From: a virus
Lineage: Duplodnaviria; Heunggongvirae; Uroviricota; Caudoviricetes
Reading direction: 5' to 3' (one strand)
Virus record (IMG/VR): IMGVR_UViG_3300046691_000084
Span: 1 to 64,000 of that record
DNA length: 64,000 bases
The notes under the pieces were generated by a model that ran no database searches, was not told the origin of the DNA, and saw only the letters and a list, made by a program, of their open reading frames with translations. A program made the position numbers and the translations under genes. Below are positions 2,345 through 56,946 of this stretch, one piece after another; position 1 is the stretch's first letter; each line of letters opens with the position of its first letter.

Positions 2345-2360
2345 CAGGGCTATGTGAAAC
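2345..2360 (-). promoter_or_regulatory. recurrent motif C copy (GGCTATGTGAA on plus; TTCACATAGCC on coding strand)
   Basis: One of three near-identical intergenic copies (2345, 32281, 35896), each with a TTTAAA element nearby. Confidence 0.3.
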
Positions 2361-2400
2361 AATTTAAAAGGCCTCCCAAGAGCTACTCAGGAGGCCTTTC
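2361..2400 (-). terminator. rho-independent terminator (bidirectional-looking)
   Basis: Perfect 8-bp stem AGGCCTCC / GGAGGCCT (2369-2376 / 2390-2397) with a 13-nt loop, flanked by AAAA on plus, so TTTT follows the stem on the minus strand; lies after the stop of 2424..3017. Confidence 0.55.
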
Positions 2401-2423
2401 ATTTGTTACAGCAGAACTACTGA

Positions 2424-3017: not shown

Positions 3018-3089
3018 TTTATATACTCTTTGAATTAGATCTGAAGATTAGATCTGAAATGATGATGAAAGGCTCTGGATAGAGCTCTT

Positions 3090-3114
3090 CCATATAAGAT
3101 ACCCATTTTCCCGC
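3090..3114 (-). promoter_or_regulatory. motif B copy 1 (plus: CCATATAAGATACCCATTTTCCCGC)
   Basis: About 25-nt element conserved at 3090, 16878 and 34796, each 30-75 nt upstream of a minus-strand gene start; candidate phage-RNAP promoter. Confidence 0.4.
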
Positions 3115-3268
3115 AGTGGGTTAAGCGCTGAAGCTTGCCTGACGACGTTGCTTACCGGACTTACCAGTCAGCGGGTGCTTACCCACGACGTGCTTATTCG
3201 GATGGAGCTTGGTCGGATGATCAGGCAGTACAAACGGAGCATGCTCTTTTGTCGCATCGTAGTAACGA
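3114..3268 (-). CDS. possible short ORF (~51 aa, MNRYYDATKEHAPFVLPDHPTKLHPNKHVVGKHPLTGKSGKQRRQASFSA) below the ORF-track cutoff
   Basis: Hand-translated from the minus strand; fills an otherwise 257-nt gap; basic C-terminus. Confidence 0.2.
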
Positions 3269-3604: not shown

Positions 3605-3624
3605 GGGTTAAGTTAACGGGCTTG
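3605..3624 (-). promoter_or_regulatory. motif A copy 1 (plus: GGGTTAAGTTAACGGGCTTG; coding strand CAAGCCCGTTAACTTAACCC)
   Basis: Identical 20-mer at 3605, 35872 and 56927, plus a close variant at 27426; all intergenic and all upstream of minus-strand genes. Confidence 0.45.
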
Positions 3625-12490: not shown

Positions 12491-12895
12491 TCAAGCTCTC
12501 CTTAGTTCTGCTGTATATTCTAGAATAGCTGCCATAGCCTTCTCAGGATGGTGCTTAGGGTCACCAGACAACCATTTCGAGTAAGAGTATCTAATCCCTT
12601 TTCTCGCAAATGAATTATCATGATACTGTTGTGCAAGACCTAACACCATGGAGTCTAAATCAGACATTGCAGGTATCAGGTTGACTAGAGAACCGCCTGG
12701 CCGGCCTTCTAGTTCGACTGTATATTGATCATCTGGGATTAGTGCACCGATCGCACACATACAACCGCCAGGGCTACGATAAAGACAACCAAAGCTGGCA
12801 CCTAGCTTACCAACAGATCGCTTCTTCTGTGTAACTAGATGGCTGACAATCTTCTTTGCAGCCTCATCATTGGTATAACGAAACTGGTGGGTCAT
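12491..12895 (-). CDS. paralog-array member 7 (134 aa): HLxxQK / CxYRxxxGxMCAIGxLIPD / YHD / WxxGxxxHHP family
   Basis: Shares all four conserved blocks with the six genes immediately upstream. Confidence 0.6.
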   Translation of the reverse strand: MTHQFRYTNDEAAKKIVSHLVTQKKRSVGKLGASFGCLYRSPGGCMCAIGALIPDDQYTVELEGRPGGSLVNLIPAMSDLDSMVLGLAQQYHDNSFARKGIRYSYSKWLSGDPKHHPEKAMAAILEYTAELRRA

Positions 12896-13368
12896 ATATT
12901 AATCTTCTTTGTCAGTCGCAGCTCATTCATAAGCAAGTCAGCCATCACTCTCGGATGATGCGCTTCATTACCATTGACCCACTCTTCATAACTGAGCCTT
13001 TGATGTTCTTTAGGAACAGCGCCATCATGATAGTATTGCATCATCTGTAGAGCATTGATGTTGACATTCTTTAGAGCAGGGATAGTCCATACAACTTGAT
13101 CAGCAGAGAAGCACTCCATCATCGGATCGTAGTCAACATCAGGAATGAGCACACCTAGCGCGCACATCCGGCCTGATACACCACGATACTTACACTCGTT
13201 TTTAGCATCAAGTGAAAGGGCTTTCTGTTTAACAAGATGAGTTATAACCACATTAAGCGCTTGTTCTGTGGTATAATAGCCTTTATAAACTTCGACCTTT
13301 GTTCCAACGGGCGTGGGCGGCTTCAGCGGCGGTAATGAAAAGGTTGGGGTGATGTTCATCATTTCCAT
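12892..13368 (-). CDS. paralog-array member 6 (158 aa as given; the N-terminal 85 nt overlap member 5, so the start is uncertain)
   Basis: Same conserved blocks (HLVKQK, CKYRGVSGRMCALGVLIPD, YHD, WVNGNEAHHP). Confidence 0.55.
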   Translation of the reverse strand: MEMMNITPTFSLPPLKPPTPVGTKVEVYKGYYTTEQALNVVITHLVKQKALSLDAKNECKYRGVSGRMCALGVLIPDVDYDPMMECFSADQVVWTIPALKNVNINALQMMQYYHDGAVPKEHQRLSYEEWVNGNEAHHPRVMADLLMNELRLTKKINI

Positions 13369-13702
13369 CTAACCACTTTTGGTAAGAGAAGGCAAAGCCA
13401 TTTAATAGAGCTTCACTATCATGATAGTACATACACATGCCTAGTACGTTTGCAGGTACATTAACAAGGATATCTATTAGCATGCTACGAATATATGTTA
13501 CAGCCATACCTTCGAGGTGAACTGTATAATGAGCATCAGGAATCAATACCCCTACAGCGCACATTAGCCCATCTGGCGATCGAAACTTGCAGGAATCACC
13601 ATTGACGCCCAATGAACGTGATCGCTGGTTTACCAGATGAAGACGTATCTTCTCAAGTACTTCTAGTACTGTCAATGCTTCAGACAATTCCATACTCCTC
13701 AC
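13283..13702 (-). CDS. paralog-array member 5 (139 aa)
   Basis: HLVNQRS, CKFRSPDGLMCAVGVLIPD, YHD, WLDGNDEHHP. Confidence 0.6.
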   Translation of the reverse strand: MRSMELSEALTVLEVLEKIRLHLVNQRSRSLGVNGDSCKFRSPDGLMCAVGVLIPDAHYTVHLEGMAVTYIRSMLIDILVNVPANVLGMCMYYHDSEALLNGFAFSYQKWLDGNDEHHPNLFITAAEAAHARWNKGRSL

Positions 13703-14063
13703 GGATGTGTACCATTAGCCTTTCAGGATGGTGGGCGTCGTCCCCGCCGATCCATTTCTTATAACCAAAAGAAGGTCCACCACGTAGCTTGGACGTATAA
13801 GTACCATCATGATACATCTGGGTTGCCCGCATAGCATCCAGGTGTAGCTCTTTAAAGGTATTTCCAGATACCGCGACGATCCAAGATATCGGCTTAAATT
13901 CCAAACCTTCGTTGTAAAGGTCATCTGGAATCAGAGCACCAAAGGCGCACATTCGGCCATCTTCACAACGATATTGGCAAACACCGCTAACTTCATTAAT
14001 TGAGATAGCTTTCTGTTTGATCAAGTGGGCTTCAATTATATTCAATGCATCGGAAGTGTTCAT
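13680..14063 (-). CDS. paralog-array member 4 (127 aa)
   Basis: HLIKQK, CQYRCEDGRMCAFGALIPD, YHD, WIGGDDAHHP. Confidence 0.6.
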   Translation of the reverse strand: MNTSDALNIIEAHLIKQKAISINEVSGVCQYRCEDGRMCAFGALIPDDLYNEGLEFKPISWIVAVSGNTFKELHLDAMRATQMYHDGTYTSKLRGGPSFGYKKWIGGDDAHHPERLMVHIREEYGIV

Positions 14064-14458
14064 ACGATTCCGTATTCCTCGCGGATAGCAGCAAAGGCCA
14101 AGTCAGGATGATGATTTACATCACCTTCAATCCATTTCATGTAGCAGTAGCCTTCAGGCCGTTTCGATCGACTACCAAACAAGACACCATCATGGTAAGA
14201 TAAGGTCAACTGAATCGGGCCTAGGTCAAGATCTTTGTCAAACAGATTCGGCCATCGCATACGAAGTGTATTGGCTGAGCTAGCCTCCATCGAAGAATCA
14301 TAGAGCTCATCTGGAATAATAGAGCCTACTGCACACTTCAAACCACATTCAGTACGCAATCGACAGGCACCTGCCCGGCCTTCGCTAATCGCCTGAGCCT
14401 TCTGTGTAATCAAGTGAGCTTGGATCTTACCCAATGTTTCGAGGGTCACTTGATTCAT
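14060..14458 (-). CDS. paralog-array member 3 (132 aa)
   Basis: HLITQK, CRLRTECGLKCAVGSIIPD, YHD, WIEGDVNHHP; ATGA overlap with neighbours. Confidence 0.6.
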   Translation of the reverse strand: MNQVTLETLGKIQAHLITQKAQAISEGRAGACRLRTECGLKCAVGSIIPDELYDSSMEASSANTLRMRWPNLFDKDLDLGPIQLTLSYHDGVLFGSRSKRPEGYCYMKWIEGDVNHHPDLAFAAIREEYGIV

Positions 14459-14880
14459 ACTGTGGTCTCCAACGCGGGGGTAGACTTGGTCATTTCAGAG
14501 TCCCATTTCTTATGATACTCTTCAATAGCTTTGAAGGCTAAGTCTGGATGGTGTAATTCATCGCCTTGGATCCATTTGTAGTAAGAATAATCAAAGCCAG
14601 GCACATGGAAGACTGCATCATGATACCGCTGTGCCATATGCAACTGCTTCAGATTTAAACCTTCGAAGACTGTAGGCAGCAACGTCACAAGTCTAACTAC
14701 AGCTGTATGCTCATGTTCATAAGCATTGTAAAGATCTTCTGGAATCAAAGGTCCTATTGCACACATCAGACCATTATAGCGATACTTGCACGCCCCATGG
14801 CATTCAGAGCGCGCTTTCTGCTTGATCAAATGTTCACGAGAAATGATCAAAGCTTGTTCATTAGTATACATAGCAGCCAT
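14455..14880 (-). CDS. paralog-array member 2 (141 aa)
   Basis: HLIKQK, CKYRYNGLMCAIGPLIPED, YHD, WIQGDELHHP. Confidence 0.6.
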   Translation of the reverse strand: MAAMYTNEQALIISREHLIKQKARSECHGACKYRYNGLMCAIGPLIPEDLYNAYEHEHTAVVRLVTLLPTVFEGLNLKQLHMAQRYHDAVFHVPGFDYSYYKWIQGDELHHPDLAFKAIEEYHKKWDSEMTKSTPALETTV

Positions 14881-15332
14881 TACATAGCTCCCAAGTGGTG
14901 TTTCATTGCTAATGCGCTCATGAGCCGTTCTGGTGAGCTTCGTTCAGCGCCTGCAAGCCAAGCAGCATAACTGTATGCCTCGTGACTAGCAGTGACGGCA
15001 TTGTCATGGTAAGACTGGAGGTCATTTAAAAGATCAGTTTTGAGATGCTTAAATATCTCGCTAACAGGATCCTGGTACTTAAGTCTGTAAATCGAGCCAC
15101 CTTCAAGACACTCGTGGTACATAGTATCAGGTATCAGCACACCGATTGCACACATGCAATTCTCAGGACCACGATACAAGCAACCATTATCGCCACGGGA
15201 TTGCTTTTTCTGAGTAGTCAAGTGATCGATGATTCGTACTAGAGCCGCTCGAGTGGCTTCCAAGTCAAAACCACTACGTGTGTTTGCAAGAGTCATAATA
15301 TTTCCAAGAAAAAATAAGTAGAGAAGGCCCAC
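14880..15332 (-). CDS. paralog-array member 1 (track start at 15332 is a GTG inside the terminator hairpin; probable ATG start at 15296, about 138 aa)
   Basis: HLTTQKK, CLYRGPENCMCAIGVLIPD, YHD, WLAGAERSSP. Confidence 0.55.
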   Translation of the reverse strand: MGLLYLFFLGNIMTLANTRSGFDLEATRAALVRIIDHLTTQKKQSRGDNGCLYRGPENCMCAIGVLIPDTMYHECLEGGSIYRLKYQDPVSEIFKHLKTDLLNDLQSYHDNAVTASHEAYSYAAWLAGAERSSPERLMSALAMKHHLGAM

Positions 15333-16869: not shown

Positions 16870-16877
16870 ATTTGTTT

Positions 16878-16902
16878 TCATATAAGATACCAAATTCCCC
16901 GC
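16878..16902 (-). promoter_or_regulatory. motif B copy 2 (plus: TCATATAAGATACCAAATTCCCCGC)
   Basis: See the copy at 3090; located after the NrdB stop. Confidence 0.4.
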
Positions 16903-16920
16903 TATGGGATTTTCAGTCTC

Positions 16921-26752: not shown

Positions 26753-26772
26753 TCGTAATCTCTTCAGGGATT

Positions 26773-26817: not shown

Positions 26818-27381
26818 TTAGTACTCGTCGTCAACCTTTGGAGCAGGGTTGCTCAAAGAGTCGTCGTCAGCGCTAGAGCTCGATTCGCCCTTGCTGCCTT
26901 CTTCGAACGCTTCATCATCCTCGTCCATTTCCTGCATATCGAAGCCGTCTTCACTTTCAGTAGGCTCGTACTTGATGTGCTTGGTGACTTGCAGAGCCAT
27001 CAAAACGGTAGCCAAACCTTCTTCACCGTCGTTGGTGAATTTGTACTGGAAGATTCGGATGTTGGCAATGGAACCGTTACCCAGGGTGCGCGGATCGATA
27101 GCTTCCAAACGACCATTGACAACGTCAACAGGATCGGACTTCTCGCCGCTAGCCTTGATTGTACGACGACGCAGGTTAATACGGAAGTACAACAGTTCAG
27201 CAGTTTCTTCATCCAGTACTGGCTTCGGCTTCAGACCGAGAGCTTCCCAGGACTTCTTGACCTTAACATCTTTCGTACGTACTTGAACGTCCCAGGTAGG
27301 GTTCTTTTTGTTGTACTTAGAGTTCGGGCGTTTTGGGTCCAGTTTAGGGAACCAGATTTCGCAAGCTTTCAGAATAGCCAT
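26818..27381 (-). CDS. ssDNA-binding protein-like (T7 gp2.5-type), 187 aa, acidic C-terminal tail
   Basis: Basic N-terminal half, strongly acidic tail (...ADDDSLSNPAPKVDDEY) ending in an aromatic residue; motif A promoter-like element 45 nt upstream. Confidence 0.5.
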   Translation of the reverse strand: MAILKACEIWFPKLDPKRPNSKYNKKNPTWDVQVRTKDVKVKKSWEALGLKPKPVLDEETAELLYFRINLRRRTIKASGEKSDPVDVVNGRLEAIDPRTLGNGSIANIRIFQYKFTNDGEEGLATVLMALQVTKHIKYEPTESEDGFDMQEMDEDDEAFEEGSKGESSSSADDDSLSNPAPKVDDEY

Positions 27382-27425
27382 GGAGAATAAACCTTAATAT
27401 TGAAGATGGAGAAAGAGCCCTGGAA

Positions 27426-27447
27426 GGGTTAAGTCAACGGGCTCTTG
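27426..27447 (-). promoter_or_regulatory. motif A variant copy (plus: GGGTTAAGTCAACGGGCTCTTG), inside a 7-bp stem (AGAGCCC 27414-27420 / GGGCTCT 27439-27445)
   Basis: Differs from the consensus at 2-3 positions; upstream of the SSB-like gene. Confidence 0.4.
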
Positions 27448-29376: not shown

Positions 29377-29717
29377 GATCTTCCTTTCAATTCAAGGTAT
29401 GTTCGGACATTTGCTTGGATAGTTCCAGGCTTGATACTCAACAACTGTGGAACATCAAAGCGCATGGATGGTGGAAGTTTACCATCACGATGCCGGCGGT
29501 GATACCAGTAGGCATCCGCATGGTATGCATCAAGGTACTCAGCACCACCTCGGTCAGCTTGCATGTAGCGAACCTGGATAGCGATCCCGAGTAAAGTGTC
29601 ACTTGGTATACGGACACTATTGACACGTGCTAGTGTCTTACAAACGCCGGTAAATACTATGGCAAAACGGCCATGTGTATCTTTGACCATTCTTGCAATA
29701 TGTTCTTCTTTTGTCAT
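29373..29717 (-). CDS. hypothetical protein, 114 aa
   Basis: ATGA-coupled to the RNAP stop. Confidence 0.5.
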   Translation of the reverse strand: MTKEEHIARMVKDTHGRFAIVFTGVCKTLARVNSVRIPSDTLLGIAIQVRYMQADRGGAEYLDAYHADAYWYHRRHRDGKLPPSMRFDVPQLLSIKPGTIQANVRTYLELKGRS

Positions 29718-31990
29718 GAGAAGCCATACTCCGAATTTAGGAACTCACTGATATCCAGATTGCCGATCTGAACACGATTCATATCACCACCGATTTGTAC
29801 CATCAGTTTGGCAAGAGGATCGTGGCTATAAAGCTCAACGAAAGATTCACGTGTAATACGGTACAACTCAGGCATATCACCTAAGAGGCACCCGAACGAG
29901 TCATGAATAGTCGTGATAGAGAATGGACAGTTCCAGACGGTCAACATCAAGTGCGCGGCGTCAAGGCTGTGGATACAGTTTGGACTTGCACCAGAGGCCT
30001 GCTTACCCTTCGATGGGATAGACTTCTCAATGAAGCAAATCTGTAGCTGCAACGTGTTAGCATAATAGCCCGTCGATTGGCGCTCGCCAGCCGGTGGACC
30101 ATATTGCACCCATACTTTTTTGACTTCCCCTTCGGTATAGTGTTGCACCACAGGGAATCCTGTTGCGGGTACAATCCAACTGAGAAACTCACCTCTCGAT
30201 TCAGCCGCTGCGCCAGCATCTTCAAAGATGGAGAGAAGTTGCATAGGCCGCTTGAGATGACGGCGACACGTCTCATAGACCTCTCGTCCAAGATAAGCAC
30301 CCCATTTATGTTCCAGGAAGAGAAGCAATTCAATGCCATGCTTCTTCGAGTCATCGATAATCTGTTGACCTAAGCCATAAGATGTCCCTCCGTACGGCAG
30401 CGTCATCACGTTTCGCTTGACGATCTTACGCTTGTGTTTAGCATCTGTGACTTGGAGCCAATAGATTACACCAGCTTTAGCTAGTTGCTCTATGTTCTCA
30501 GTCTTGAATGCTCTAATCTGATCAGCCAAGGCCATGCGCTTCTCACTCCGAGGCTCTGATCTTTGGATCTGACGTTTTAGTTCAATTAGTTGGAGGATGA
30601 GTGATTCGCACAGTTCGATATCTTGTTGTGTGTAGTCAGATGCAATTTCAACAAGCCTATTCCAAACATGATCACCAACGAACTTATACAGATCACCAGG
30701 ATATTCCGAAGCCACAAGATTGACATGGGGTGCTGTTTCCTCATCTTTCGTAAGTGCTGCGAGGTGTTGTGATCCATTATTTGAACCATCGATATAAGCC
30801 TCAAAGGAAGACACATAACTGAAGTCCTCAAAGAATGCCCACGGCTCAAGTTCTAGTTCTCTTGCTTTAGCCATTTGCCAAAGACGCAGATTCCTTAACT
30901 CAAAGCATGCTGCAAGGAATTGCCAGGGTACATCTGCTTGCATCCAACCTTGGTTCTGCTTAGGCGACTCTGCGTAACCTATGAAAGTCTCTTCATGGTC
31001 TAGTGCCCAATCTGCACGGGCCTTGAGAGGGATTTTGTCAGTCTTGAGACCGTCGGTCCGTCCAGCATCACCCGCCCATCCACTCGCCAGAGATACGAGT
31101 AGCCAGAAGAAGCCACCCTCACCCATACCCTTGCCTTCAACACGGCGTATGAGGGCGCGCGAAAGATCTGAGCCTTGTTCATGGAGATACGCGGTATTCG
31201 GATATTTGCGGCCACGGAAGTCAAAGTAGTACCGATGGTAATACTGTTTGTGGAGAAAGCGTTTAGCAATACCTCCGATTGCTTTAGCTTCCCGAAGTTT
31301 AGTCGCCTTTGCTTCAGGATTTGATTGCTCCCAGATGTCCGCAAAGGCATCTGTTTTATTCTTAAGAGCCCATGCTTGGATGTCGTAAATTTCTTTGTTA
31401 ACACGCCATGCTACCTTCTGCGCTTCGTTTACACAATGGAAGACAATCGGGTGTTGCCCGATGTTCAATGCGTCTAAAACACTCTTGTCGTTAGTCTTGA
31501 CAAGCTTAGTGCCATCTGTATGGCGACCTTGGGTCCACTCTGGATAAGCAACTTCAGACGGCAACTTCTCGGCCTTAGTCTGAGGTACACTCTCCCACAG
31601 CTTTACAATTGCATCGTCATTCAGAACTCTTACGAGATATCCAGCATGGCCATTTGAGACAGGCCCTAGGATCACTTCAAGCAATTCAGCTTCTTCGAAG
31701 GTATATAAGATGAACCCTCCAGTTTTAGCTGCTAGTGCTGAATCTCGTTTCTGTTTCAACTTGTTACGAATCATATGACCGAGCGAGGAAATCAACTCAG
31801 GCATAGGCACTTCTACCGCTACACTCCGGCCTGTCTTAGTAGGCCTTGTGAAACCGTGGATGACTTCAATCACAGAGTCGATATAATCGGCTGCTGAGAT
31901 CGGCTTCAAGTACTTCAGAGGCGACTGCCCTGAGATCTCCAGGATCAAACGCTCTTCAAGGGATGTGACAAGCTTCTTCTTCAAGGACAT
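29714..31990 (-). CDS. T7-like single-subunit DNA-dependent RNA polymerase, compact (758 aa)
   Basis: DFRGR motif (RYYFDFRGRKY), motif A DGSNNGSQH, motif B KRNVMTLPYGG (K-x3-M-T-x2-YG), motif C IHDSFG. Confidence 0.85.
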   Translation of the reverse strand: MSLKKKLVTSLEERLILEISGQSPLKYLKPISAADYIDSVIEVIHGFTRPTKTGRSVAVEVPMPELISSLGHMIRNKLKQKRDSALAAKTGGFILYTFEEAELLEVILGPVSNGHAGYLVRVLNDDAIVKLWESVPQTKAEKLPSEVAYPEWTQGRHTDGTKLVKTNDKSVLDALNIGQHPIVFHCVNEAQKVAWRVNKEIYDIQAWALKNKTDAFADIWEQSNPEAKATKLREAKAIGGIAKRFLHKQYYHRYYFDFRGRKYPNTAYLHEQGSDLSRALIRRVEGKGMGEGGFFWLLVSLASGWAGDAGRTDGLKTDKIPLKARADWALDHEETFIGYAESPKQNQGWMQADVPWQFLAACFELRNLRLWQMAKARELELEPWAFFEDFSYVSSFEAYIDGSNNGSQHLAALTKDEETAPHVNLVASEYPGDLYKFVGDHVWNRLVEIASDYTQQDIELCESLILQLIELKRQIQRSEPRSEKRMALADQIRAFKTENIEQLAKAGVIYWLQVTDAKHKRKIVKRNVMTLPYGGTSYGLGQQIIDDSKKHGIELLLFLEHKWGAYLGREVYETCRRHLKRPMQLLSIFEDAGAAAESRGEFLSWIVPATGFPVVQHYTEGEVKKVWVQYGPPAGERQSTGYYANTLQLQICFIEKSIPSKGKQASGASPNCIHSLDAAHLMLTVWNCPFSITTIHDSFGCLLGDMPELYRITRESFVELYSHDPLAKLMVQIGGDMNRVQIGNLDISEFLNSEYGFS

Positions 31991-34763: not shown

Positions 34764-34795
34764 AAAGCACCTTTTATGGTTATCCTTTCGGACTT

Positions 34796-34820
34796 TCATA
34801 TAAGATACCATATTTTCCGC
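34796..34820 (-). promoter_or_regulatory. motif B copy 3 (plus: TCATATAAGATACCATATTTTCCGC)
   Basis: Immediately downstream, on the coding strand, of the endolysin terminator. Confidence 0.4.
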
Positions 34821-34858
34821 AATTAAAAACCCTCTCTAAGGTCGATCAGAGAGGGCTT
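34821..34858 (-). terminator. rho-independent terminator after the endolysin gene
   Basis: Perfect 8-bp stem CCCTCTCT / AGAGAGGG (34830-34837 / 34848-34855), 10-nt loop, followed on the minus strand by TTTTTAATT. Confidence 0.6.
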
Positions 34859-34863
34859 CTTTG

Positions 34864-35196
34864 TCAAACAGTGCGCTGGAAGTGAGGCTTGTCTTTAAAA
34901 GTTTTCCAATGTCCACCCCATTGATTGAGTAGATTGAGAGACTCCCAATAAGTGCCAACTTCTTCTGGATAAACCAGGACACCATCTTTGGTGATGTTCA
35001 GGTCAGCAGCACACTTCTTCAGATGCATGCTATTCATAGTGGTAGAGCGACCGGTCTTTACATAGATCGCTTGCTGTTCATCAGTACGAAGGCATTCACC
35101 CATACGAACTTCATAGCCAAGCTCAAAGCATTTAGACAAGAGCTTGCAGAGATCGCGGGAAAAGGCTTCTTGGTGTTGACCGAGAGTAAGGGCCAT
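34864..35196 (-). CDS. endolysin, peptidase M15 (zinc D-Ala-D-Ala carboxypeptidase / L-Ala-D-Glu peptidase fold), 110 aa
   Basis: ECLRTDEQQAIY ... GRSTTMNSMHLKKCAADL: H/D/H zinc-ligand pattern and size typical of small M15 endolysins; shares a boundary nucleotide with the holin-like gene. Confidence 0.6.
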   Translation of the reverse strand: MALTLGQHQEAFSRDLCKLLSKCFELGYEVRMGECLRTDEQQAIYVKTGRSTTMNSMHLKKCAADLNITKDGVLVYPEEVGTYWESLNLLNQWGGHWKTFKDKPHFQRTV

Positions 35197-35735
35197 TATG
35201 GAGTACCTCTTTCATTGATAGCCTTGGAGATCGCATCACTCTTCGCTTTGGAGGAATGGCTGGAACCAAAGAAGAAATTGAGCACCTGGCACATGATCGT
35301 ACCTAAGAGAACACCCAAGATAGTATCAGCAAATCTGACGTTCTCAGGCGGAATGGTGCCGAAAGTGATTGCAGTGATATAACCCATCGCGAAGATAGTC
35401 CATACAATAGCAAACCAGTAGATGAAGTCTTTGGCAAACTTGCTATCACTCGCTAAGGCTACACCTTGCATCGTACGCGCAGATTGTACATCTTGGAGAT
35501 ACATAGCATCAATTTGTTGTAGCAGTTGATTATCTGCTTGCTTGATCTTAAGTAATTCTTCTTCGTGGTCCATCTGAAACTGTTGTAGCTTCACGAAGTC
35601 TTCTGAAGTAAGTTGAGGCTTATCGAGATCAATGCCTGTTTTATCACTCAGCCATTCTTTGCCTTTTGCAAGACCAGCGTTAGCTAAGAGGTCCATCCCT
35701 TGTTGAAGCAATGGAAGTATGAAAGCTGGTAACAT
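35196..35735 (-). CDS. holin-like membrane protein, 179 aa
   Basis: Two C-terminal TM helices, charged N-terminal coiled segment, immediately upstream of the endolysin. Confidence 0.45.
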   Translation of the reverse strand: MLPAFILPLLQQGMDLLANAGLAKGKEWLSDKTGIDLDKPQLTSEDFVKLQQFQMDHEEELLKIKQADNQLLQQIDAMYLQDVQSARTMQGVALASDSKFAKDFIYWFAIVWTIFAMGYITAITFGTIPPENVRFADTILGVLLGTIMCQVLNFFFGSSHSSKAKSDAISKAINERGTP

Positions 35736-35804: not shown

Positions 35805-35852
35805 ATAGGATACTAGTAACAACAATGGTACACTACCATTACATTATCCTAT
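35805..35852 (-). promoter_or_regulatory. nested inverted repeats (outer ATAGGATA/TATCCTAT, inner AATGGTA-cac-TACCATT) followed by a C-rich tract (G-rich on plus, 35856-35875)
   Basis: Seen directly in the sequence within the 313-nt non-coding region upstream of the lysis cassette. Confidence 0.35.
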
Positions 35853-35871
35853 ATAGGGGGGCGGCGGTAGG

Positions 35872-35891
35872 GGGTTAAGTTAACGGGCTTG
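35872..35891 (-). promoter_or_regulatory. motif A copy (exact) with motif C (35896-35909) adjacent
   Basis: Identical 20-mer; 137 nt upstream of the holin-like gene start. Confidence 0.45.
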
Positions 35892-37040: not shown

Positions 37041-40000
37041 CGTTTTATTCCCATAGCAAATATAGCTGTAGCAGAAACAGTACGTGTACTATCAGCAAAA
37101 TCAATAAGCCCAGTACAGTAATGAGTGCCAGCAGGCAGCCAAAATGTACCAAAGGCTACTGCAGAAGTAGAAGACCCCTGTGGTGCTGTAACTCTCACTT
37201 GTGGGCCAACGTACGCAGCATCTACAAATACTCTCAAGAAACAGCTAGCCGCACCAGCACCAGACTCGGCGATAAAGTTAGCCATTATAGTTACAGATAT
37301 CATGCCGGGTTGATCTAAGATGACTACTGCAGTCGGTATCGAGCCCCACCCCTCCATACCGACAGGGACAGTTACAGCATTACCTTTAATCTTAAGTGTA
37401 TCCACTGCTAGATCTTGAATCTTGGCAGTAGTGATGGTTGCATCTTGAATCTTAGCTGTATCAATAGCAGCATTTTGAATCTTGGCATTAGTGATAGCAG
37501 CATTTTGAATCTTGGCATTAGTGATAGCAGCATCAACGATCTTGGCAGTGACAATACTAGCATCTTTGATCTGAGCAGTATCAATCGCCGCATCGGCAAT
37601 CTTGGCAGTAATTACAGATAGATCAGCAATCTTAGCAGAATCGACAGCAAGGTTGGCAATCATTGCATTACTAATAGCACCATCAGCAACAGCCAGAGAA
37701 CCTGCTACAATGGCACCTGCAGCAAGTTTACCTGCAGTAATAGCACCAGCAGAAATCGCAGCTGCAGTAATAGCATTAGCAGCAATAGCAGAGGCTGTCA
37801 CAGCATTAGCGGCAATCTCAGCAGCTGTAATAGCATTGGCAGCAATCTTTGCAGTTGTGACAGCATCGTCTGTAATCTGAGTGCTAGTGATCTGACCGAC
37901 CATTGCTTGAGCATTGATGACACTCACATAGGCAGGCGTAGGGAGTGTTATATCCCACTTGTACAAATTACCCAACCAGCTGATTGTCTTGCCATAGTTA
38001 GTAGTAGGAAGCTCTGTGTCAGTACGGAATACAATAGCTTCAAGACCAGGCACCAACTCAGCATTAGAGATCGAACCATTGGCAATATTATTAGCTGTAA
38101 TGATATCAGCGCCTAGATCAGAGTTACCAATAAGACCAGTTTGTGCTACAGAAGGCCCAGCAAAGGCTGTAGAGATACCACCACCAACAGACATTTCTTT
38201 AACCCAGAATACAAAACGCTTTCCGAGTACAGTAGGGTAAACCCAGCCATAAATGTTATCTGTAGATGCAATCAAGAAAGCTTCTTGGAAAGCTGGTTGT
38301 GGTCCAGAATCCCATGGAGTAGCATAGATCAATACTGCTTTGTGGCCACCGCCGATCGTAAATGCAGGGACAGTCCAGTACAACTGAATAGTAGAGAAAG
38401 CAGCTGTCGCAGAGAAGTTGTATGGTGCCGGTGGCGGTGTCAGATCGAGTTTCTGTTGCCAGAAATCCATTGTCTGTGTCACCACCTGAGAAGCATTACC
38501 AACAACTGCTCTTGTGGATTGTAATCGAACTTGGTATTCAAGGACACCATACTCAGTTGGCGTATCAATATAATAGCCAATTGTTGTCTGACCGATAAGT
38601 ACCCACGTAGGCGCACCTTGCTTGCGACGGTAGACATTTGTAGTGTAATGGTCATTATAAGGTGATCCGTCTGCCCTTGTCAAAGGCATGAGCCAAGAGA
38701 CTTTTACAGACTCATTATGATCGCCTGCCAATGTCGCAGAAAGGCCTGTTGCAGTAGGTGGTGTTGGATACACGATTGTAATCGTATCACTCAACCCTAG
38801 TGCGGACACTGCACCAAGTCGTGATACAGAACATATGCCAATAACTACGTTCGTTGTTTCAAGACCATCGACAACAAAGCTATTATCTGTAGTGGAGCCC
38901 ACAGCAGACCAAATAGGATTGAAGTTTACATCAACATTACCTACTTTCCATACATAGATGTTGTAGTATGCGATGCGATCATCATTCGGTTTAGTCCATG
39001 TCACTGTCCCTGACTTATTCAGCAAGGCAGTTACATTAGTCGACCAGGTGACATTTGTCGGTGCTGGCAATACGTTGATTGCAATTGGGACAGATGTCGA
39101 AGGTGATGCTGCTCGGCCTTGTGGATAGAACGCTTGAACGGTAAACTCATACGCACCCGCCTTAAGTGAAAAGATCTCAAGGCTAGTAGACATTGTATTA
39201 CCAATGTAAGTCCACTCATTCGTACCTATTTTACGCACATTCACTGTATAATAAGCGGGTGAATTATTAGCAGGTTGATCCCACTTCAAAATGCCCAATG
39301 CTTCTGATAGGGCATTCGCTGATGATGCTACAAATATGATCGAGTTAGGATTGACAGCTGCAATAGTGAAATCGTAGTTGTTACGTGGAGGTACAATTTC
39401 ATTATCCTTGGCGTTCCATGCTAACTGCCGGTAATCATATTTAGTCGCTGTAATCTTTGCAGTACTTTGGTCTGTGACTTCCATTTCAGTGATCATCATA
39501 TACTCATTCACAATGACTGCAGCTTCACTGTTTACGAGGACAATATCACCAGCTTCAAGGAATGCGCCATCCAGATTCACACTGAATTTATAGACAACTT
39601 CACTACGGGAAATACGGACCAATTCCTCTGCTTTTGCCAAAGCATGATAACTTGATACAATACCTGACTCAGAGAAGTTCTTCTCCAAAGGTACCATACT
39701 ATCCTCGGCCAAGAACGTCTGGTGAATAGCGCTACCACGTGGTGGCCATGTTGCAGAGTTTTCTTTAAAATCATTGGCTTCATCTGCATATTTTATTGTG
39801 CAGATATTAGCACGTTCTGATGCAGTAGGGTAAGTAATGTCAATACTCTCACGAATGAGGATACTATCATCAATGACCTTTGATACAACAATTTCACTAT
39901 TGGATGTTGGGTATTGTAACTGCAGTTTATACTTACCTGCTGACCAGATAAGATCTGCATCACCCATGCATGAAAGAATATCAATGATGTTCTCACGAAT

Positions 40001-42070: not shown

Positions 42071-45000
42071 TTAACCTCTAAAGTTCTTTTCGCGGTTATG
42101 TTGATTCACGCCCGTTGCAATCTGTGGAAGCATGCGCAGGACTTCTTGTTTAGTCTGACGACTAATATCACCAGTAATGTGGATGTTGAACTCTTGAGTA
42201 GTTCCCATATTACCACGCGCCAAAGGCGTTGGAGTGGAACCAATCATAGGAGACGAACTACGAGTAGATACCAGACCGCCATCTGCGAAATGACCAATGC
42301 TACGGCCATTGTTAATTGCATTTAGCAAACCAGCATGACGCTTAGTAGCTGCTGCATTGACAATGAATTCGCCGTTAGAGATCATTGCAGGAATGGCATC
42401 AGAACGGCCACCACCAGGTCCAGAGACCATACCACCATCAGCGAAGAAGCTGGCTGCCGAGGCAAACGCACCAGCCCAATTGAAACTACCAATGCTGCTA
42501 GCAATACCACCGAAATCAAGCTTACCTAGCATACCGCCTAAGCCAGACAAACCATCCATGAAGGTAGTGCCAATACTTGCAAAGCCATCACTGAATACAC
42601 TAGTAATGCTATCCAATGCACCTACAGTTGCGGCAGTACCCTCTTTGACAGTATCAGCAGTCTTATCACCGCCACCACCGCCAAACAGATTAGAAATACC
42701 ACCAGCTGCAGCTTGACCTACAGGATTGATACCACCATAGACCATTTCACCTAGCTTAGCAAGACCAGCTGTCAGAATGCCATTATCACCAGTCAATGGG
42801 TCCAGGAGACCTTTTGTGAAAGCATCCAAGATAGAGTTGGTGACATTGTCTAAGATCGAGTCCAGGAAAGTCCCCAATACAGTGTTGTTATCATCAGCCT
42901 TACCTTTAAGGAGATTAGTAAAAGCCTCATTAAAGTTAGATGTGATACTAGCTGCAAAGGACTTACCGGCATCATGCATTGCCGCAGCGGAGGCGCCAAT
43001 ACCATCAGACAGCTCTTTAAGAGCAGCTTGGTAATCATCTACTTGTTGCTGGATGGCAGCCGTAGGATCACCCTTCTGAATAGCCATGTTCAAGTCTATA
43101 GTGGATTGCTTGACCTTATTAGCGAGATCGAGCATAGACAACAACTGAGCTTTGTTAGCTAGATTGATGGCTTTATTATCCACTAGGCCTTTCCCTGTAC
43201 CACCGAGAGCTGCCTTAACCTGGTCTGCAAGAGACTTAGCACCTTTCTGTGACAAGTCTTGGCCTACGCCAGCAAGCTTAGCACGTTCGGTGTCGAAGCG
43301 CCGGAATGCCTCAAGAGTAGGGCGAGCAGAGCCGCTCAGAGCGCCTGTGCCAGTTGCCGTACCACCGGCGCCGCCAGCCTTGCCGCCATTCTGCGTCACA
43401 CCTGCGAGGTTATCAATTGACTTTCTCAAATCATCTTGAGACATAATCAACTGTTGCGTAGGCGTAGTAAATGCAGAACCCAACGAACCACCCAATGAGG
43501 TATTAAACTCATCGAGGATCTGCTGAATGGGCTTATCCACTTGGTCCAAAATGCCTGCCAATTCAGGAGTCAACCCAGGAAGATTCAATGCTTTCTGATA
43601 AGCATCCAATGCAACTGCTTGCTCTGAGTAAGCCTGTGATAGCTTATCAGGGATCATAGCAAATGCTTCAAAGTCAGGAGCAAGGTCACCAAGGATTTGG
43701 CTCAGAGAATCAAATGCAGTCTTAGCACCATTGGTCAGTGCATCTTCCATATTCTTAGCAACATCTGCAAAGAATGCAATAGCTTGACCGGTACGAGCGG
43801 CAGCACGCATCTTGATGAAAATCTCACCTACAGATTCGCCAGAGGCCGAAAGACCATTATGGATAGCGTCTTCCAACGCATCCTTCAGAACAGACGCTTG
43901 CACTGTCAGTTGGCGGATTACATCACCACCCATGCGTGCCATGCCTTGCTCATCCAGCCCTGTAGCAAATACATCATTGATAGTCTGTACTTGGGCTGTG
44001 AAGTTATGAGATGCATTACGAACGGCGCGTGCAGTTGCTCGTTCTAGATCAGATACACGTTTAATAGCAGTGACATACCCATCTAGGTCAGAAGTGTCAT
44101 TCAGTGTGAGTTTGGCCAGGGTTAATTGCTTATCCAGACCTAACAAAACTTGTATACGCTCCTTAGCGATCCCTGCAATATCTTGCATATCACTCAAGCC
44201 AATGCGACCTAGACCTTCAGTGATACCTGCACCAGTGGCATGCAAAGCACTTACGATAAGCATACGAGCTTGTTTCAACAGAGCTTCACGTTTTGCCATG
44301 ACAGCTGTGAGGCTTTCACCGACAACACCAGTCGCAGCACCAACATTGAGATGCTTGGATAATGCCTCGAGTTGTACACCAATACCAGCGACAGACTTTT
44401 GAACTTGAGCAGGTAGCCGCGAGAAGCCGAGATCAGAGATATTTAAACCAGTCTCTTGCAACTTGCTAATCAGGCTATCGAACGACAGTACAGAGGTATC
44501 AGTGACAGCATCGAGTTGCGTCTGGAGATTAACCAGCTGAGCACCTAAAGCAGCCATCTGAGATTCACTACCCTCAGCACCCTTATCGATCTCACCGTTA
44601 AGCTCTTTCTGCTTAGCCGCCATAGCAATCTGGATGATCGCCCATTGCAACATAGCAGACTTGCTCTTACGGATACCCTCAGGCATCTCGACACCAAGTG
44701 CTTGAGCTACACCATAGGCCTTTGTGACATTCCCGAGAGACTTGTTATCTACAAACCCTTGCGCATTAGAGATCTTCTGCGCCTGAGTAATGCCAAGCAT
44801 CGTCTTTTGCTTATCTTCGATTTGCTTCAGAAGTGCAGCTTGGGCAGCTTGAGAGCCACCAGTCTTGTACAGATCCTGCAGCTCACCTTTAGCAATACCG
44901 ATTTGTTTGCTCAACGCACTGATGTTCATCAGAGACGAATCGGACAGCGAACCGAACAGCTTACCACTAATGGCAGTACCACCAGAGGCTTGCAAGGCAT

Positions 45001-48000
45001 TGTTGATTTGGTCAAATGATGTCATTAACGGGAGATTAGCAGCAACCACACCCCGAAGTTCCTGCATCTTAGTGATAAGACGCTGGATCTCGGATACAGG
45101 CGTGTCAGCATTGATGTTATCAAACTGAGTCTGCAGCTTGCCGTATTCGATCGTCACACCCGACAACGAATTGTAGGTTGCTGGATCAATATAGAACAGA
45201 CGCTTCAAGTCGTCAGCTGATGCAACATCAGGAACCATCTTGGTCTTGATTTCGACATCTTTAGCGATAGACATACTCGCTTGAACACGATTCCAAAGTT
45301 CCTTAGCCTGGTCACCGATATCATCAATGTTGAGTGTGATTTTACGACGCTCAGCCAGATCGTAAGTGGTCTTCAGTTGCTCTTTAAAGCCACGAACACC
45401 TTCAATGTAAGCCTTCATTGCAGCAAGGTCTTGATCACTACCTACGAACTTCGCACCATCAGTACCCATGTCGATTTCAAACAGCTGCTTAGCATCACCA
45501 GCCATCTTAGAAATCTGAGTGGTGATATCTTTAGTACGACCGAGAGCTTCCGCATACCAACCATACTGATCCGTCAGTCGCTTCAGGTTGACATAGTTGT
45601 TAGCATATTCGACGTTTGCTGCTTGAAGTTTCTTGGTGAAATCTTCAAGGTTATCCGAGTTACGTGCCCGAGCGCCTTCTTCAATCAAGGTTGTCCAACG
45701 CTCAGCAGAGTCAGCCGTAGCATCATAAGCCTTACGCAGTTCATCTTGGGCTTCAGTAGAGAGGTTCGAAGCGTACTGTGGTAAGGTGCCGATCATTTTG
45801 TTAATGCCGACTGTCTGTTCGATCTTGAGTGGCGACGTCTTATTGCTATTCGCAGCTACCCAGTCATCAAATGATTTGGAGATATTGTCAGCCATATTGG
45901 AGACGCCATCACCAATTTTCTTACCAACTTGCTCGATATGTTTGACAAAGGCTGTATCCATGATCCAATTGCCAAACCCAACAATTGCAGACTTGAGACC
46001 GTCAAACGCAGCAGACAGCAAAGCACCTAGAGACGCACCCACAATAGCACCGAGAGGCCCAAAGAAAGCACCAATAGCACCACCAATCAAAGCTGGGATT
46101 GAGGTATACCTGTCAATAATATAACTAACGGCAGAGCCGCTTGCCATGAACACCTCTTCCAGGGCACTAAAGGATTTTGCAACCCAATCTGTACTATCTT
46201 GAATGGTGCCCATAATAGGGCTTAGACCTACCCAATTACGCAGAACATCCCACATCGAAGTGGAGACACTCAGCATAGACAAGTTGAAAGCATCTGAAGC
46301 GCCAGCAAGAGTCTGGGTAGCATCATGAGGGAGGCGAGTGAACACTTCCTTCATTTCCTTCTGAAGACGACTGAGGTCATCCAAGTTCTCTTGAGTCCAA
46401 CCGCCTTGTTTGATGTAAGCTTCGTTCAGATTAGCAAGCCCTTCTTTAGTGGCTGCAGATGTTTCTTGAACGACTTTAAACTGAGCATCAGACAGTTTCG
46501 AGAAGTCAACACTACGGATATCAGATGCGAAGGAAACCTTACGATCACCAATAGCTTGAGTACCGCCAATGTTATTATTGACTTCTTCTCTACGACCACT
46601 TTTCGTGGTTGCTTGGAGACCCATGATGCTACGGATCTTATCATGCGCCCATTCAAGGTTGTCGATGAACGAAGTACCTGGTCCAAAGAAGTGCAAGGAC
46701 AGAAGACCGACGCCAGAAACAACAGCACCGATGATACCACCTTTCAACAGGAACGGCATAACTTTCGAGAAGACTTTAGAGACCAGACCGCCAAGTTTAG
46801 CGAATGCAGTACCAGCACCTTCAAGGAAACCACCGAAAGCACTCTTAACATTCAACTTCTTCAGCGACTTGAATACACCAGTGAATAGACCACCGAGACC
46901 ACCAGCGATGTCACCCAAGCCGCCAATGGTGCTGGAGACAGCTGTGGTTAGCTTCAGATCCTTGATTGACTTCAGAGCAGATACCAACTTTGTAGTGCCT
47001 TCAACCATCAGAGCAATCGCAGCAGGGTTGACGCTGAAGGTGGTCTCCAGAGTCTTACGCAGCGAGTTGCCAATAGAAGTAGAACCACTTTCGCCAGTCA
47101 TGATCTTCTTGATCTTGGCCATAGAAGTCTTAGTGGTGCGTTCTATACCACGGAATACATCAGAGAAGTATCCACTTAAACCTACAAAGCCAGCAGTGAA
47201 TGAGCTATTGCTAGCTGCAATCTTAGCTAGACGTGCTTGTTTGGTAGCGAACTGTGCTTCAAACTCAACCAATTCAGTCAACTCTGTAGCAGCACGTGCT
47301 TTCATGAAACCATCACGTACAGATGCAACTTTGCTTTCAGTAGCTTTCTGGAGGCCTAGCTGAGTAGCTAGACGTTCAGCTTCAGTAGCAAAGACAGACT
47401 TCTTCATTACTTCACGAGCTTTCTTATCCAACCCTGTACGAGTAACAGCAACAAGGTCAGCAAGCTCGGCTTCAGCAGACACAGCCTTCTTCTTACGGAA
47501 AGCAGCAAGGTCTACATCATGCTCTGGAGCTACGAAAGTACCTGCCTTCATGCTCTTGAACGTTGCGCTCGCAGCATTGAAAGCATTATAGACACGGAAT
47601 GCAACACCCATTGCAGCGAAGCCAACAGTCAGCTTCTCTACAACATCCAGAAGAGACTGGCTATTAGTGGTCATTACGCCGATTGCGGAGGATGCATCAG
47701 AAGCGGCAAATGCAGTTGAACCTAGCCCAAGAGCCAAGACAGCAAACAAGGCATAGCGGTTCAGAATGATACCAAAAAGACCTTTCAAGCCATCTGCCAA
47801 GAGGCTTAGACCTGCAACAATCGCAGACCAGCCTTTTGTCATGATCTTGCTGACAGTATTCTTGAAGTTCTGAAGGAACACAGTAAATCGACCGAAGCCG
47901 ACCATTGCCTGTCCAATCATAGCATTCACAACACCGCCAAGCGTCTTACCGCCACCTATAGAGACAGCACTGAAAGCATCCAGAATACCATTGAAGGATT

Positions 48001-51000
48001 TCTGAATATCCAGACGAGTCTTAGTTGTGCCGCCAGAGCCCATGCCAGAAGACTTAGAGCCTACAAGGAACATGTCCATGAAGCCTATCTTACCAGCATT
48101 GTACTTAGAGGCGTTGGCACGCATGTTGTCAGCAGCTGTATGAACATCAGACCACATAGCAGCAAAAGCATCACCAATAGGGCCACGTTGTTTTGCGCTA
48201 ACACGGGAAGCTAGTCCACGAGGTGCATCGAACAGCTTGTAGATGATCGATTCAGTACCCGAAACTTTAGCAAGAGCAGCTAAGCCACCTAGGTATGCTG
48301 CTTTGGCAATGTGACCGGTTACATTCACTGCTTGAGTTGCCAAACGACCGCCACCATCCTTACCGAGCAGAGCAAAAGCCAACAGAGGTAGACCGATTTC
48401 AGCAGCCTCGATGAGTGATACACTCTCTAACAGAGATGAAGACAAGGCAACAGCGCCTGCAATAGCCAGCTTCTTGCTTGCGAAGATCTTATCAATAAGC
48501 GAGACGCCAACATTCGAAGTATCACGACCGAGCATTGCACCGACGTAATCAACCAGACCATCCTTTTTACCAGTTATGACGCCTGCTTTGTTCTTCTTAC
48601 CTTCTTTACCAGCGAGGAGTTCCCAGATAGAGCCTCGAGCGCCTTTGCTAAAGATTGCAAGCAGACCAGCAGCAGCAACACCAGCAGTTACCAGGTTGTT
48701 AGATACCAATGGCAACCAGCTAAAAGCCGTTACCATAGTGTCTGCAAATGGCGCAAAGCTGCCCAACAGCCCGTCTACGAGCGATGGAGCCAGCTGAATA
48801 AACGAATCCAAAGCGCTACGGAAAGCTTCGACAGAATGGTGAACTAGTGTGACCAAGACATGACCTGCAGCTTCACCTAATGCTGGGGCAAACACATCGA
48901 AAGCCGTGTTCAAAGCACCATTCAGCAGAGTAGAGAAGTAGCTAAGTGCAACAAGCTTCGCACGTGCGCCACCAAAGGCCAACAGAAGAGCAGACACAAT
49001 AGCTGTCTCAGAGTTCTTACGAAGTACTGAGAAGAAGTTGCCCATGTCAACATTAGACAGACGGATGGTGAAGTCAGCAATCACGCCACCAGCTTGAAGA
49101 CCGTAGCGCTGCATCATTGCGAAGAAGCCTTTGAAAGCATTCATCACAGCTTTGCCGAAACGTTGAATGGTGCTTTCCGATTCAAATAACTTCTCGGTAT
49201 AAGCATTCACTTCATCAACAAGGTCTGGCCAGTACGAGTGACCTACAACAGCATCATAGACTTCGAAGAAGATGCTCTTGATGGACTCGCCAAACTTGTA
49301 AACCATATCGCGAGCTTTGGAAGACAACTCTGCAGTCTTGTCTACAATACGCTGATACATCGCTACAATGTAGTTAACACCTGTTTCAAGGGAAGAGCTA
49401 TCAATACCGAACTTCGAAACAAAGTTCAAGCCTTGGAAGTGCTTAGAAAGAGCAGCCCAGCCGCGAGCAACAGCATCAGTCAACTTGGTGAATGAAATTA
49501 CAAATGCAGCCTTGATCCGGTCAAAGGCATCTGAGAATGCTTCAGAAGAGATACCATGACTTACACGTGTCCAGAGCTCAACGAAGAAGCCTTGGATAAA
49601 CTGACCGAAGTCAAGCATAGTAGCTTTAGTCTTCGACCATAGCGAACTGTCTTGTTTGCCACCAAAGAGCTTATCCCATATCGAGACAGACTCAAGGTGA
49701 TCCCAGGCACGGAACAATGACATTGCGCCATCAAGCATACCATCGAAGAACGAATCGGCAATGCTTTTACCGGTACCTTGGTTGAACATGTCACTGATTG
49801 CGTCCAAGAACGCGCTAGAGATGTTCTCAATATTGACTAGGAGGCCGAACACAATTGGTTCAATCGTAGTAGCAAAAACGTCTTGGTAGACACGTTTGGT
49901 CACACGACCGATATCTGCCACATACTTGCCGACACGATCAAGACGCGAATCTCGAATGTGCAACAGTTTGTTGTCCATCAAACCAAGCTGAATCAGAACG
50001 TCCTGTACATCATACGATGCACCACGAATGTTACGAAGCATTTCAGCGCCAAAGAATGTTTTATCATCCCAACGAATCTGCTTACGTACACGATTCAGCT
50101 CATTAAGGTTACCAATGAATGCATCGATGTTAGTGGACTTGAAGAGGTTTACCCAAGCTCGTTCAACCTTGTTATCTCCAATGGAGAACAAAGTCATCTC
50201 CTGAGCGAAGGCTTCTATAGCACGGGATGCAGGAATGATCGCTTGGTACAACCAGGCATCAACGTTGAAACGGATCTTACGGAGACTGTTAGTGATGGTA
50301 GTGCTGAGGTCTACGAAAGGTGTCTGGATAACAGGTACCAAACGTCGCAGATTGTAGGCAGTAGCATCGAGTGAGCCAACGAGACCTTTACCAAGGCTTT
50401 TCAGACGGCTAACGAGAACAGAGAACCCAGATGCGTTTGCATCAATGCCACTGACCTGAGGTTCGAGGCCAGTCAGCGTAACACCACCAGTATCTACAGT
50501 GAGATTTGGTTTTGTCTTGAAGAAATCTTTAACAGATGACATTGCATGTTTTGCAGCAGAGTAGAACTTGTACTTTTCAATCACATCCATCGGCGTGATA
50601 TTGAATTTCATAGCTGCTTTAAGCGTTAGCTCAGTTGCGCTATATAAGTTCAAACCATCGATGAAGTTTTGAGCGTTCTGTCGAACCAGATAAGCTTCAG
50701 CACCGATCAGCTGACTGGCTTCAGAGAAATAATTTGCTAAACTGAGAATACGTTTACCATACTTCTCAGATGCTCCGAATCGTTGGTTTAATTCACCGAA
50801 GAATAGAGACATCGATTGACCGAGCTGATTGGTAGCATCAGTAGCAGTAATCATTGTCCTTGCAAAGTCTTTATCAGCGCTTGCAGCCATGTCCTCCAAA
50901 GCCGCGAGAACACGCTTAGGCTCCAAGGAGCCCGCAGCACCCATAGCTCGAAGTTCACCAGTAGTGACCTTGAGAGACTTAGCGATACCTTGACCAATGT

Positions 51001-56821: not shown

Positions 56822-56926
56822 TTTCTTTCCTCATGAGTACGACTCATAAGACACATATCACAGATATGTCTCAGTAAGCTCAGAAATAGGCGCACCCGAG
56901 TATGACAACGCGAAGTTACCATACAA

Positions 56927-56946
56927 GGGTTAAGTTAACGGGCTTG
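56927..56946 (-). promoter_or_regulatory. motif A copy (exact), 3 nt after the stop of the MuF-RNAP gene
   Basis: Identical 20-mer. Confidence 0.45.

Follow-up and report, generated by a model that had tools for sequence, protein, structure and literature searches.

An intergenic 20-nucleotide motif is a candidate promoter for a phage-encoded single-subunit RNA polymerase in an uncultured siphovirus

Promoters of the T7 group of phages (T7, T3, SP6, and K11) are contiguous blocks of about 20 bp on the transcribed strand, each with a cognate T7-like polymerase in the genome, an AT-rich stretch just upstream of a GGG start, and stem-loops at the 5′ ends of the transcripts. In T7, the positions before the SSB and scaffold/capsid genes are held by promoters phi2.5, phi9, and phi10. 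Most characterized phage polymerases (T7, T3, and SP6) start with G. Compact promoters of 15 to 18 bp with GC-rich recognition cores have been defined biochemically for Syn5 (a cyanophage), KP34 (Klebsiella), and VSW-3 (Pseudomonas). Phages with two polymerases (N4, phiKZ, and P23-45) carry one enzyme in a virion protein and one free enzyme and have two unrelated promoter classes; the promoters of the N4 virion polymerase are DNA hairpins. To our knowledge, the virion enzyme makes the early RNA in every such phage (N4 and phiKZ). For P23-45, early transcripts are likewise reported to come from the virion enzyme. The published description of the Naomviridae does not mention an RNA polymerase, and promoter control appears there solely in connection with a self-splicing intron. 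In the literature searched, we found no description of the motif reported here, of the repeated motifs of DSS3_VP1 (Naomviridae) and Kolga described below, or of the MuF-polymerase fusion, transcription, or promoters in this phage family.

The stretch analyzed (64,000 nucleotides, hereafter the window) comes from an uncultured siphovirus to which EBPR siphovirus 1 and the Naomviridae are distant relatives. A nucleotide search of a phage collection returned no close annotated relative at the DNA level; the nearest phages by protein were EBPR siphovirus 1, the dU-DNA roseophages DSS3_VP1 and DSS3_PM1 (Naomviridae), and the Pelagibacter phages Kolga and Aegir. In the direction of transcription, the genes run from portal, a 1556-aa MuF-polymerase, scaffold, major capsid, tape measure, and tail proteins, through a 179-aa putative holin, an M15 peptidase, a small-gene cluster, and a 758-aa T7-like RNA polymerase, to a gp2.5-like SSB, a family A DNA polymerase, a primase-helicase, ribonucleotide reductase, and many further small genes. 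An N4-like phage had been suspected from a 3211-aa open reading frame but was rejected; this frame encodes the tape measure protein (PF20155), and neither of the two motifs described below can form a hairpin promoter. A tape measure of this length points to a very long tail. One tail protein (1282 aa) contains a series of 30-nt (10-aa) tandem repeats, and elsewhere six tandem paralogous genes (about 130 to 160 aa; repeat family D2) have a conserved N-terminal segment in common (Table 1).

Two single-subunit RNA polymerases are encoded, as originally predicted. The 758-aa enzyme is only about 25 to 30% identical to those of the T7 group (883 aa in T7). It has more than 440 strong metagenome homologues, many on contigs of 70 to 80 kb, one of which (76,943 bp) carries an identical polymerase; 458 IMG/VR stretches matched the polymerase. 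The second enzyme is the polymerase part (roughly residues 650 to 1556) of the 1556-aa protein, in which a MuF head domain comes first. This part is a divergent single-subunit RNA polymerase that retains the three catalytic motifs, A (DASSSGAQ), B (KAQNMVTFYGAG), and C (TIHDAF); by sequence, the 1556-aa protein matched no solved structure. The fusion is conserved in EBPR siphovirus 1, where it is 56% identical and split by an HNH gene, and in the Naomviridae, of which DSS3_VP1 and DSS3_PM1 have homologues of the two polymerases at 33% and 29% identity. It is probably packaged in the capsid and delivered with the DNA.

A search of the window found three exact copies of the 20-mer CAAGCCCGTTAACTTAACCC (motif A) and one variant with three mismatches, all on the minus strand and intergenic (Table 1). 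Every substantial open reading frame of the window is also on the minus strand, so motif A lies on the coding strand. No match occurred in 100 dinucleotide-preserving shuffles of the window. The three exact copies of the original prediction were thus found again at the same positions, as was their coding-strand placement upstream of gene starts; the variant is present with its mismatches, but it spans 27426 to 27445, not 27426 to 27447. Of those mismatches, two affect the pair of 5′ bases, where the family shows no conservation, and one a variable position; against the family core CCGTTnnnTTAACCC, this copy is therefore free of mismatches. With a position weight matrix built from relatives and applied to both strands, the four sites scored 26 to 30 bits, and no other position in the window rose above −3.4; weaker or degraded copies are therefore absent from the coding sequence of the window. 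Copies inside coding regions, which would have spoken against a promoter, were sought by exact search, mismatch search, and weight matrix, and none was found in the window.

Copy 1 precedes a 96-aa gene of the N4 gp49/Sf6 gp66 family (PF13876), and the orthologous class of site in relatives lies upstream of a 197-aa gene; the 96-aa gene had been called early, a timing for which we found no support. Copy 2 precedes the SSB gene at the head of the replication block, copy 3 the lysis pair, and copy 4 the scaffold gene, after which the major capsid and tail genes follow.

Table 1. Positions of motif A, motif B, and associated features in the window
Feature	Position	Strand	Remarks
Motif B copy	3088..3120	-	Upstream of 197-aa gene
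Motif A copy 1, exact	3605..3624	-	13 nt past stop of 99-aa ORF; 39 nt before ATG of 96-aa gene; 29.5 bits
Six tandem paralogous genes (repeat family D2)	12491..15332	-	
Motif B copy	16876..16908	-	Heads small-gene cluster after ribonucleotide reductase genes
gp2.5-like SSB gene	26818..27381	-	
Stem enclosing motif A copy 2, AAGAGCCC with GGGCTCTT	27413..27446		8 bp; -12.8 kcal/mol; z -2.9
Short hairpin CCCT/AGGG from 3′ CCC of motif A copy 2	27418..27428	-	-3.9 kcal/mol; predicted 5′-terminal stem of SSB transcript
Motif A copy 2, variant AGAGCCCGTTGACTTAACCC	27426..27445	-	22 nt past preceding stop; 44 nt before ATG of gp2.5-like SSB gene; 27.2 bits
758-aa T7-like single-subunit RNA polymerase	29714..31990	-	PF00940, 2e-62; T7 RNAP, 4e-39
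Third repeated element	~32260-32310, 32560-32612, 2340-2433	-	
Motif B copy	34794..34826	-	After endolysin gene and hairpin/T-run; heads small-gene cluster ending in RNAP gene
M15 peptidase endolysin	34864..35196	-	
179-aa putative holin	35196..35735	-	
C-rich stretch and AT box	35850..35871	-	
Motif A copy 3, exact	35872..35891	-	157 nt past preceding stop; 136 nt before 179-aa putative holin; 26.3 bits
30-nt tandem repeats in 1282-aa tail protein	37352..37681	-	
Tape measure protein	42071..51706	-	3211 aa
Scaffold gene	56141..56821	-	
Hairpin at scaffold gene RBS	~56836-56850	-	
Stem-loop opening at ACCC of motif A copy 4	56894..56930	-	-15.6 kcal/mol; z -2.8; predicted 5′-terminal
Motif A copy 4, exact	56927..56946	-	2 nt past MuF-RNAP stop; 105 nt before scaffold gene; 30.3 bits
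1556-aa MuF head protein fused to divergent single-subunit RNA polymerase	56949..61619	-	N-terminal MuF, C-terminal PF00940

Motif A is conserved among related phages while the DNA around it is not. A syntenic relative (IMGVR_UViG_3300042868_003052), with coding DNA 64 to 73% identical to that of the window, keeps AAGCCCGTTAACTTAACCC exactly at three sites within intergenic DNA that cannot be aligned. In a comparative set of 80 loci centered on the polymerase gene (1,395,761 bases, 1.4 Mb), exact matches to the core CCGTTnnnTTAACCC numbered 87 on the coding strand and 0 on the other; the corresponding counts were 17 and 1 with one mismatch and 32 and 31 with two, the last being background level. 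The family consensus is GAaCCCGTTAAATTAACCCt, in full (G)A(a)CCCGTTAAATTAACCCt, and the window copies depart from it solely at positions that vary in the family. Over 87 unique sites, the information profile holds 1 to 2 bits across about 19 to 20 contiguous positions and drops to about 0.1 bit in the flanks. The exact 16-mer consensus occurs in at least 120 IMG/VR stretches, and the motif is invariant among phages from many different metagenome samples. It can also be used, with very high specificity, to recognize members of the family in metagenomes; EBPR sludge and freshwater samples are rich in them. Diverged versions, CCGTT(GAA/ACA/ATT)TTAACCC, are found in EBPR siphovirus 1, one directly after the MuF-polymerase gene, where copy 4 stands in the window, and one before the terminase block (position 14131).

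For 141 unique motif A sites, we recorded the first downstream homologue among the window proteins. The SSB was the commonest (47/141), followed by scaffold (40/141), the 179-aa gene or endolysin (13/141), and the 197-aa gene (9/141); none was found for the remaining sites, and no window gene outside these four classes came up as the first downstream homologue. The classes match the four positions in the window itself, so each of the four copies has positional orthologues across the family. In many relatives, two copies stand about 114 nt apart before the scaffold gene (e.g., L090:8622 and 8736; L102:2417 and 2531), where the window has one.

The leaders downstream of motif A point to where RNA might begin. 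At SSB-type sites, the end of the motif lies 28 to 58 nt (median, 42) from the first aligned SSB residue, with a ribosome-binding site between them. RNAalifold returned no consensus structure for these leaders, because loop lengths vary and the MAFFT alignment had no gaps, and it was replaced by a per-sequence stem test. With this test, a hairpin of at least 4 bp with the motif's own CCC as its 5′ arm (e.g., ACCCTCAaaaTGAGGGT) was found at 23 of 41 unique SSB-type sites, versus 1.6% of shuffles; the next pair varies between T-A, A-T, and G-C, and the loop differs in length. Over all sites, the CCC is paired at 49 of 87, versus 27% of shuffles. In the window, copies 2 and 4 have such stems (Table 1), and the copy at 3605 also pairs from AACC. 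The longer stem that had been described around the variant copy is real, with 8 bp, but peculiar to that copy; it is absent in relatives, in which the conserved feature is the shorter hairpin from the 3′ CCC of the motif.

As the stems begin at the terminal CCC, the RNA likely starts within TTAACCC, just upstream of the CCC. By analogy with DSS3_VP1, where CGTTAAAGA is followed by GGGG, we predict a start at the AA. A search with the conserved scaffold leader as the query found no metagenome contigs that begin at this position. A T3-like reading of the SSB sites, with AATTAACCCTCA....GGG and a start at the GGG, was rejected because CCC and GGG are separated by a variable 4 to 9 nt and because co-variation links the arms, as in a hairpin.

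Other elements of the leaders were noted in passing. Lysis-type sites and the first copy of tandem pairs are followed by a conserved C-rich stretch and AT box, GACGyCCCC..TATATTAT, in place of a hairpin (Table 1; in relatives, e.g., L012:6747, L032:6563, and L090:8638). In the window and in loci L090 to L252, the scaffold gene has a small conserved hairpin, GAGTYGTACTC, directly next to its ribosome-binding site. At this element, an exact 18-mer, TGAGTTGTACTCAAAGGA, lies 53 to 90 nt past motif A in more than 20 independent metagenome contigs, and the element may be a translational operator.

A second intergenic motif, TGCGGnAAAnnnGGTATCTTATATGR (motif B; GGTATCTTATATG, also TGCGGnAAA..GGTATCTTATATGR), is conserved equally to motif A, with 75 exact cores on the coding strand and 0 on the other in the 80 related loci. 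A hairpin starting at the G of its ATG follows it, and a hairpin with a T-run often precedes it. The order in the family is constant: the lysis-site copy of motif A, one to three copies of motif B, the polymerase gene, and the next motif A 0.4 to 3 kb further on; no motif B was found within 10 kb downstream of the polymerase gene in the related loci. As motif B stands before small-gene clusters and the polymerase gene and motif A before replication, morphogenesis, and lysis genes, motif B is probably an early promoter class, and motif A looks like a middle/late class.

Taken with the 758-aa enzyme, these properties make motif A a likely promoter of a phage-encoded single-subunit polymerase. 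The original prediction had proposed a promoter class for such an enzyme from the length of the repeat; the block of about 20 bp with sharp edges and one direction, its orthologous positions, and the layout of hairpin, ribosome-binding site, and ATG lend support to it. As in the T7 group, a contiguous block on the transcribed strand accompanies an encoded T7-like polymerase, and its directional intergenic copies head gene blocks, those before the SSB and scaffold/capsid genes having counterparts in T7. The AT-rich stretch just upstream of the predicted start and the stem-loops predicted at the 5′ ends of transcripts are further likenesses. In contrast, motif A does not resemble the T7, T3, or SP6 consensus overall, RNA is predicted to start with an A followed by CCC where theirs starts with GGG, which is unusual, the polymerase is 758 aa rather than 883 aa, and the phage is a siphovirus, not a podovirus. 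The 3′ part of motif A, AATTAACCCT, equals positions −17 to −8 of the T3 promoter, which form the upstream binding region there and not the start; this likeness and the one to Syn5 that follows are no more than leads. The promoters of Syn5, KP34, and VSW-3 resemble motif A in their compactness and GC-rich cores, and the Syn5 core contains CACCCGTAA, which resembles GCCCGTTAA of motif A; past a short CCCGT(T)AA, the sequences are unalignable, and those promoters were defined biochemically, whereas motif A was defined by comparative genomics alone. We therefore regard motif A as probably of the T7-type phage polymerase kind, with a new sequence that is not known to have overall similarity to the promoters of T7, T3, SP6, K11, Syn5, KP34, and VSW-3.

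If motif A is a promoter, gene order favors the 758-aa T7-like enzyme as its reader. The virion enzyme is the early one in known two-polymerase phages (see above), which would assign motif A to the 758-aa enzyme and motif B to the MuF fusion; this assignment is somewhat more likely than not, as the gene order in Kolga and the look of motif B (see below) weaken it. The geometry agrees: motif A spans about −15 to +5 around the predicted start, which fits the T7 type better than the longer span of motif B (about −27 to +4). The 758-aa polymerase would bind a duplex of about 20 bp, (G)A(a)CCCGTTAA(a/c)TTAACCC(t); the AT-rich TTAA stretch would melt, and RNA synthesis would start at the AA/AC of TTAACCC to give transcripts beginning (A)ACCC. 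Four units would be transcribed in this way: SSB, DNA polymerase, primase-helicase, and ribonucleotide reductase; scaffold, capsid, and tail genes; holin and endolysin; and the block of the 96-aa gene. The MuF-fused polymerase, probably delivered with the DNA, would read motif B for early genes, start the infection, and then hand over to the free 758-aa enzyme. The whole two-enzyme program of a large and wholly uncultured family of long-tailed phages, with a packaged MuF-polymerase reading motif B early and an A-initiating 758-aa enzyme reading motif A for replication, morphogenesis, and lysis, is put forward tentatively, with about as much to be said against it as for it.

This arrangement is like that of N4, phiKZ, and P23-45 in having one polymerase in a (putative) virion protein and one free, and two unrelated promoter classes, of which the putative early one precedes the gene of the free polymerase. 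Unlike N4, neither motif can form a hairpin promoter, and the polymerase is fused to a MuF head protein rather than contained in a 3500-aa ejection protein; in P23-45, the fusion is reported to be to the tape measure. Both enzymes here are single-subunit, and no late step by the host polymerase is evident, which sets this phage apart from the two-polymerase phages. If the program holds, it would be the first case of a virion polymerase delivered by MuF and would provide two new orthogonal promoter-polymerase pairs.

The opposite pairing, in which motif A is the promoter of the MuF-fused polymerase and motif B that of the T7-like enzyme, is unlikely. The 1556-aa protein does retain all three catalytic motifs, and by eye motif B is nearer than motif A to the T7/SP6 consensus (an A-rich upstream part, then CTTATAT and G), which could argue for this pairing. 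Conserved positions of both motifs are essentially invariant across polymerases of 51 to 64% identity, and the variable triplet differs between sites within one genome, so motif and polymerase show no usable covariation. It counts against the swapped pairing that the promoter in front of the polymerase gene would depend on the product of that gene; read-through from the lysis-site motif A could reach the gene, and Kolga, which has the T7-like polymerase only, without a MuF fusion, carries a repeated motif upstream of its own polymerase cluster, so a promoter upstream of a polymerase gene need not belong to a different enzyme. Against it stands also that capsid, tail, lysis, and replication genes would be the first transcribed after infection, contrary to the early role of the virion enzyme in N4, phiKZ, and, as reported, P23-45, and that the shorter span of motif A, not that of motif B, has T7-type geometry.

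Binding by a phage DNA-binding regulator, or by host RNA polymerase redirected by a phage factor, is very improbable. With GTTAAnTTAAC as its core, motif A contains a perfect palindrome (5+1+5), as would be apt for binding by a dimeric protein, and many small neighboring proteins are without an assigned function. However, the conserved flanks are asymmetric (CCC on both sides, not CCC and GGG), the orientation is strictly one-way (87 to 0), and variation at one position of the palindrome is not accompanied by co-variation at its partner. A sigma-70 scan of 25000 to 37500 placed no site, and thus no −35/−10 pair spaced by 16 to 18 bp, on the copies at 27426 and 35872 and found fewer sites than in shuffles; a Pfam scan of 20 neighboring proteins detected no sigma factor, helix-turn-helix protein, or other regulator. 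The invariance of motif A across metagenome samples also speaks against this reading. Nor does the palindrome have the form of an N4-type hairpin promoter (a stem of 5 to 7 bp and a 3-nt loop), as its center is 1 nt, CCC lies on both flanks, and no such hairpin is conserved.

That motif A instead acts in RNA, as a processing site, a stability element, or a sequence-specific terminator/pause site between operons, is the least probable reading, for although three of the four copies lie 2 to 22 nt past stop codons and hairpins follow, a minority of them with T-runs (e.g., L060 and L078), the motif itself cannot fold, most downstream hairpins have no T-run and so do not resemble intrinsic terminators, Rfam gave 0 matches over the whole window at the gathering score, and two features are more in keeping with a start signal than with a stop: at SSB sites, the ribosome-binding site and ATG follow at a short, constant spacing, and relatives carry tandem copies before the scaffold-capsid genes, which are highly expressed.

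The reading of motif A as a polymerase promoter gains support from a similar repeated motif in a distant relative. In DSS3_VP1 (L008/L009), aATAGGkTrCGTTAAAGAGGGG is found at least nine times on the coding strand; the copies fall into two sub-variants, and a hairpin comes after each. Its genome architecture, the coding-strand placement, the CGTTAAA core, the hairpins after the motif, and copies just after the polymerase gene are as in the window; the bases of the upstream and start regions differ, with GGGG in place of AACCC. In Kolga (L007), AAGRCACYCTTACAGA occurs three times, two of the copies forming a divergent pair in its large intergenic region, and a phylogenetic profile placed this motif clearly with neither motif A nor motif B. 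The repeated motifs of both phages are likely promoters of their own polymerases. If confirmed, motif A would be the promoter for a compact T7-like enzyme (758 aa) that hundreds of environmental phage genomes encode, and the two could serve as an orthogonal transcription pair, possibly A-initiating, for synthetic biology or RNA production. Together, motifs A and B give a testable transcription map of an uncultured phage family; among cultured phages, the dU-DNA Naomviridae are closest to it.

A third repeated element, TTCACAnAGCCCTG..GGC.TTAAAAGG, occurs in the window and is absent from the 80 relatives (Table 1). The copy just 5′ of the polymerase gene leads into a hairpin and a tract of 13 T. 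Possible roles for the element are those of a host-type promoter, an attenuator, or a structured RNA.
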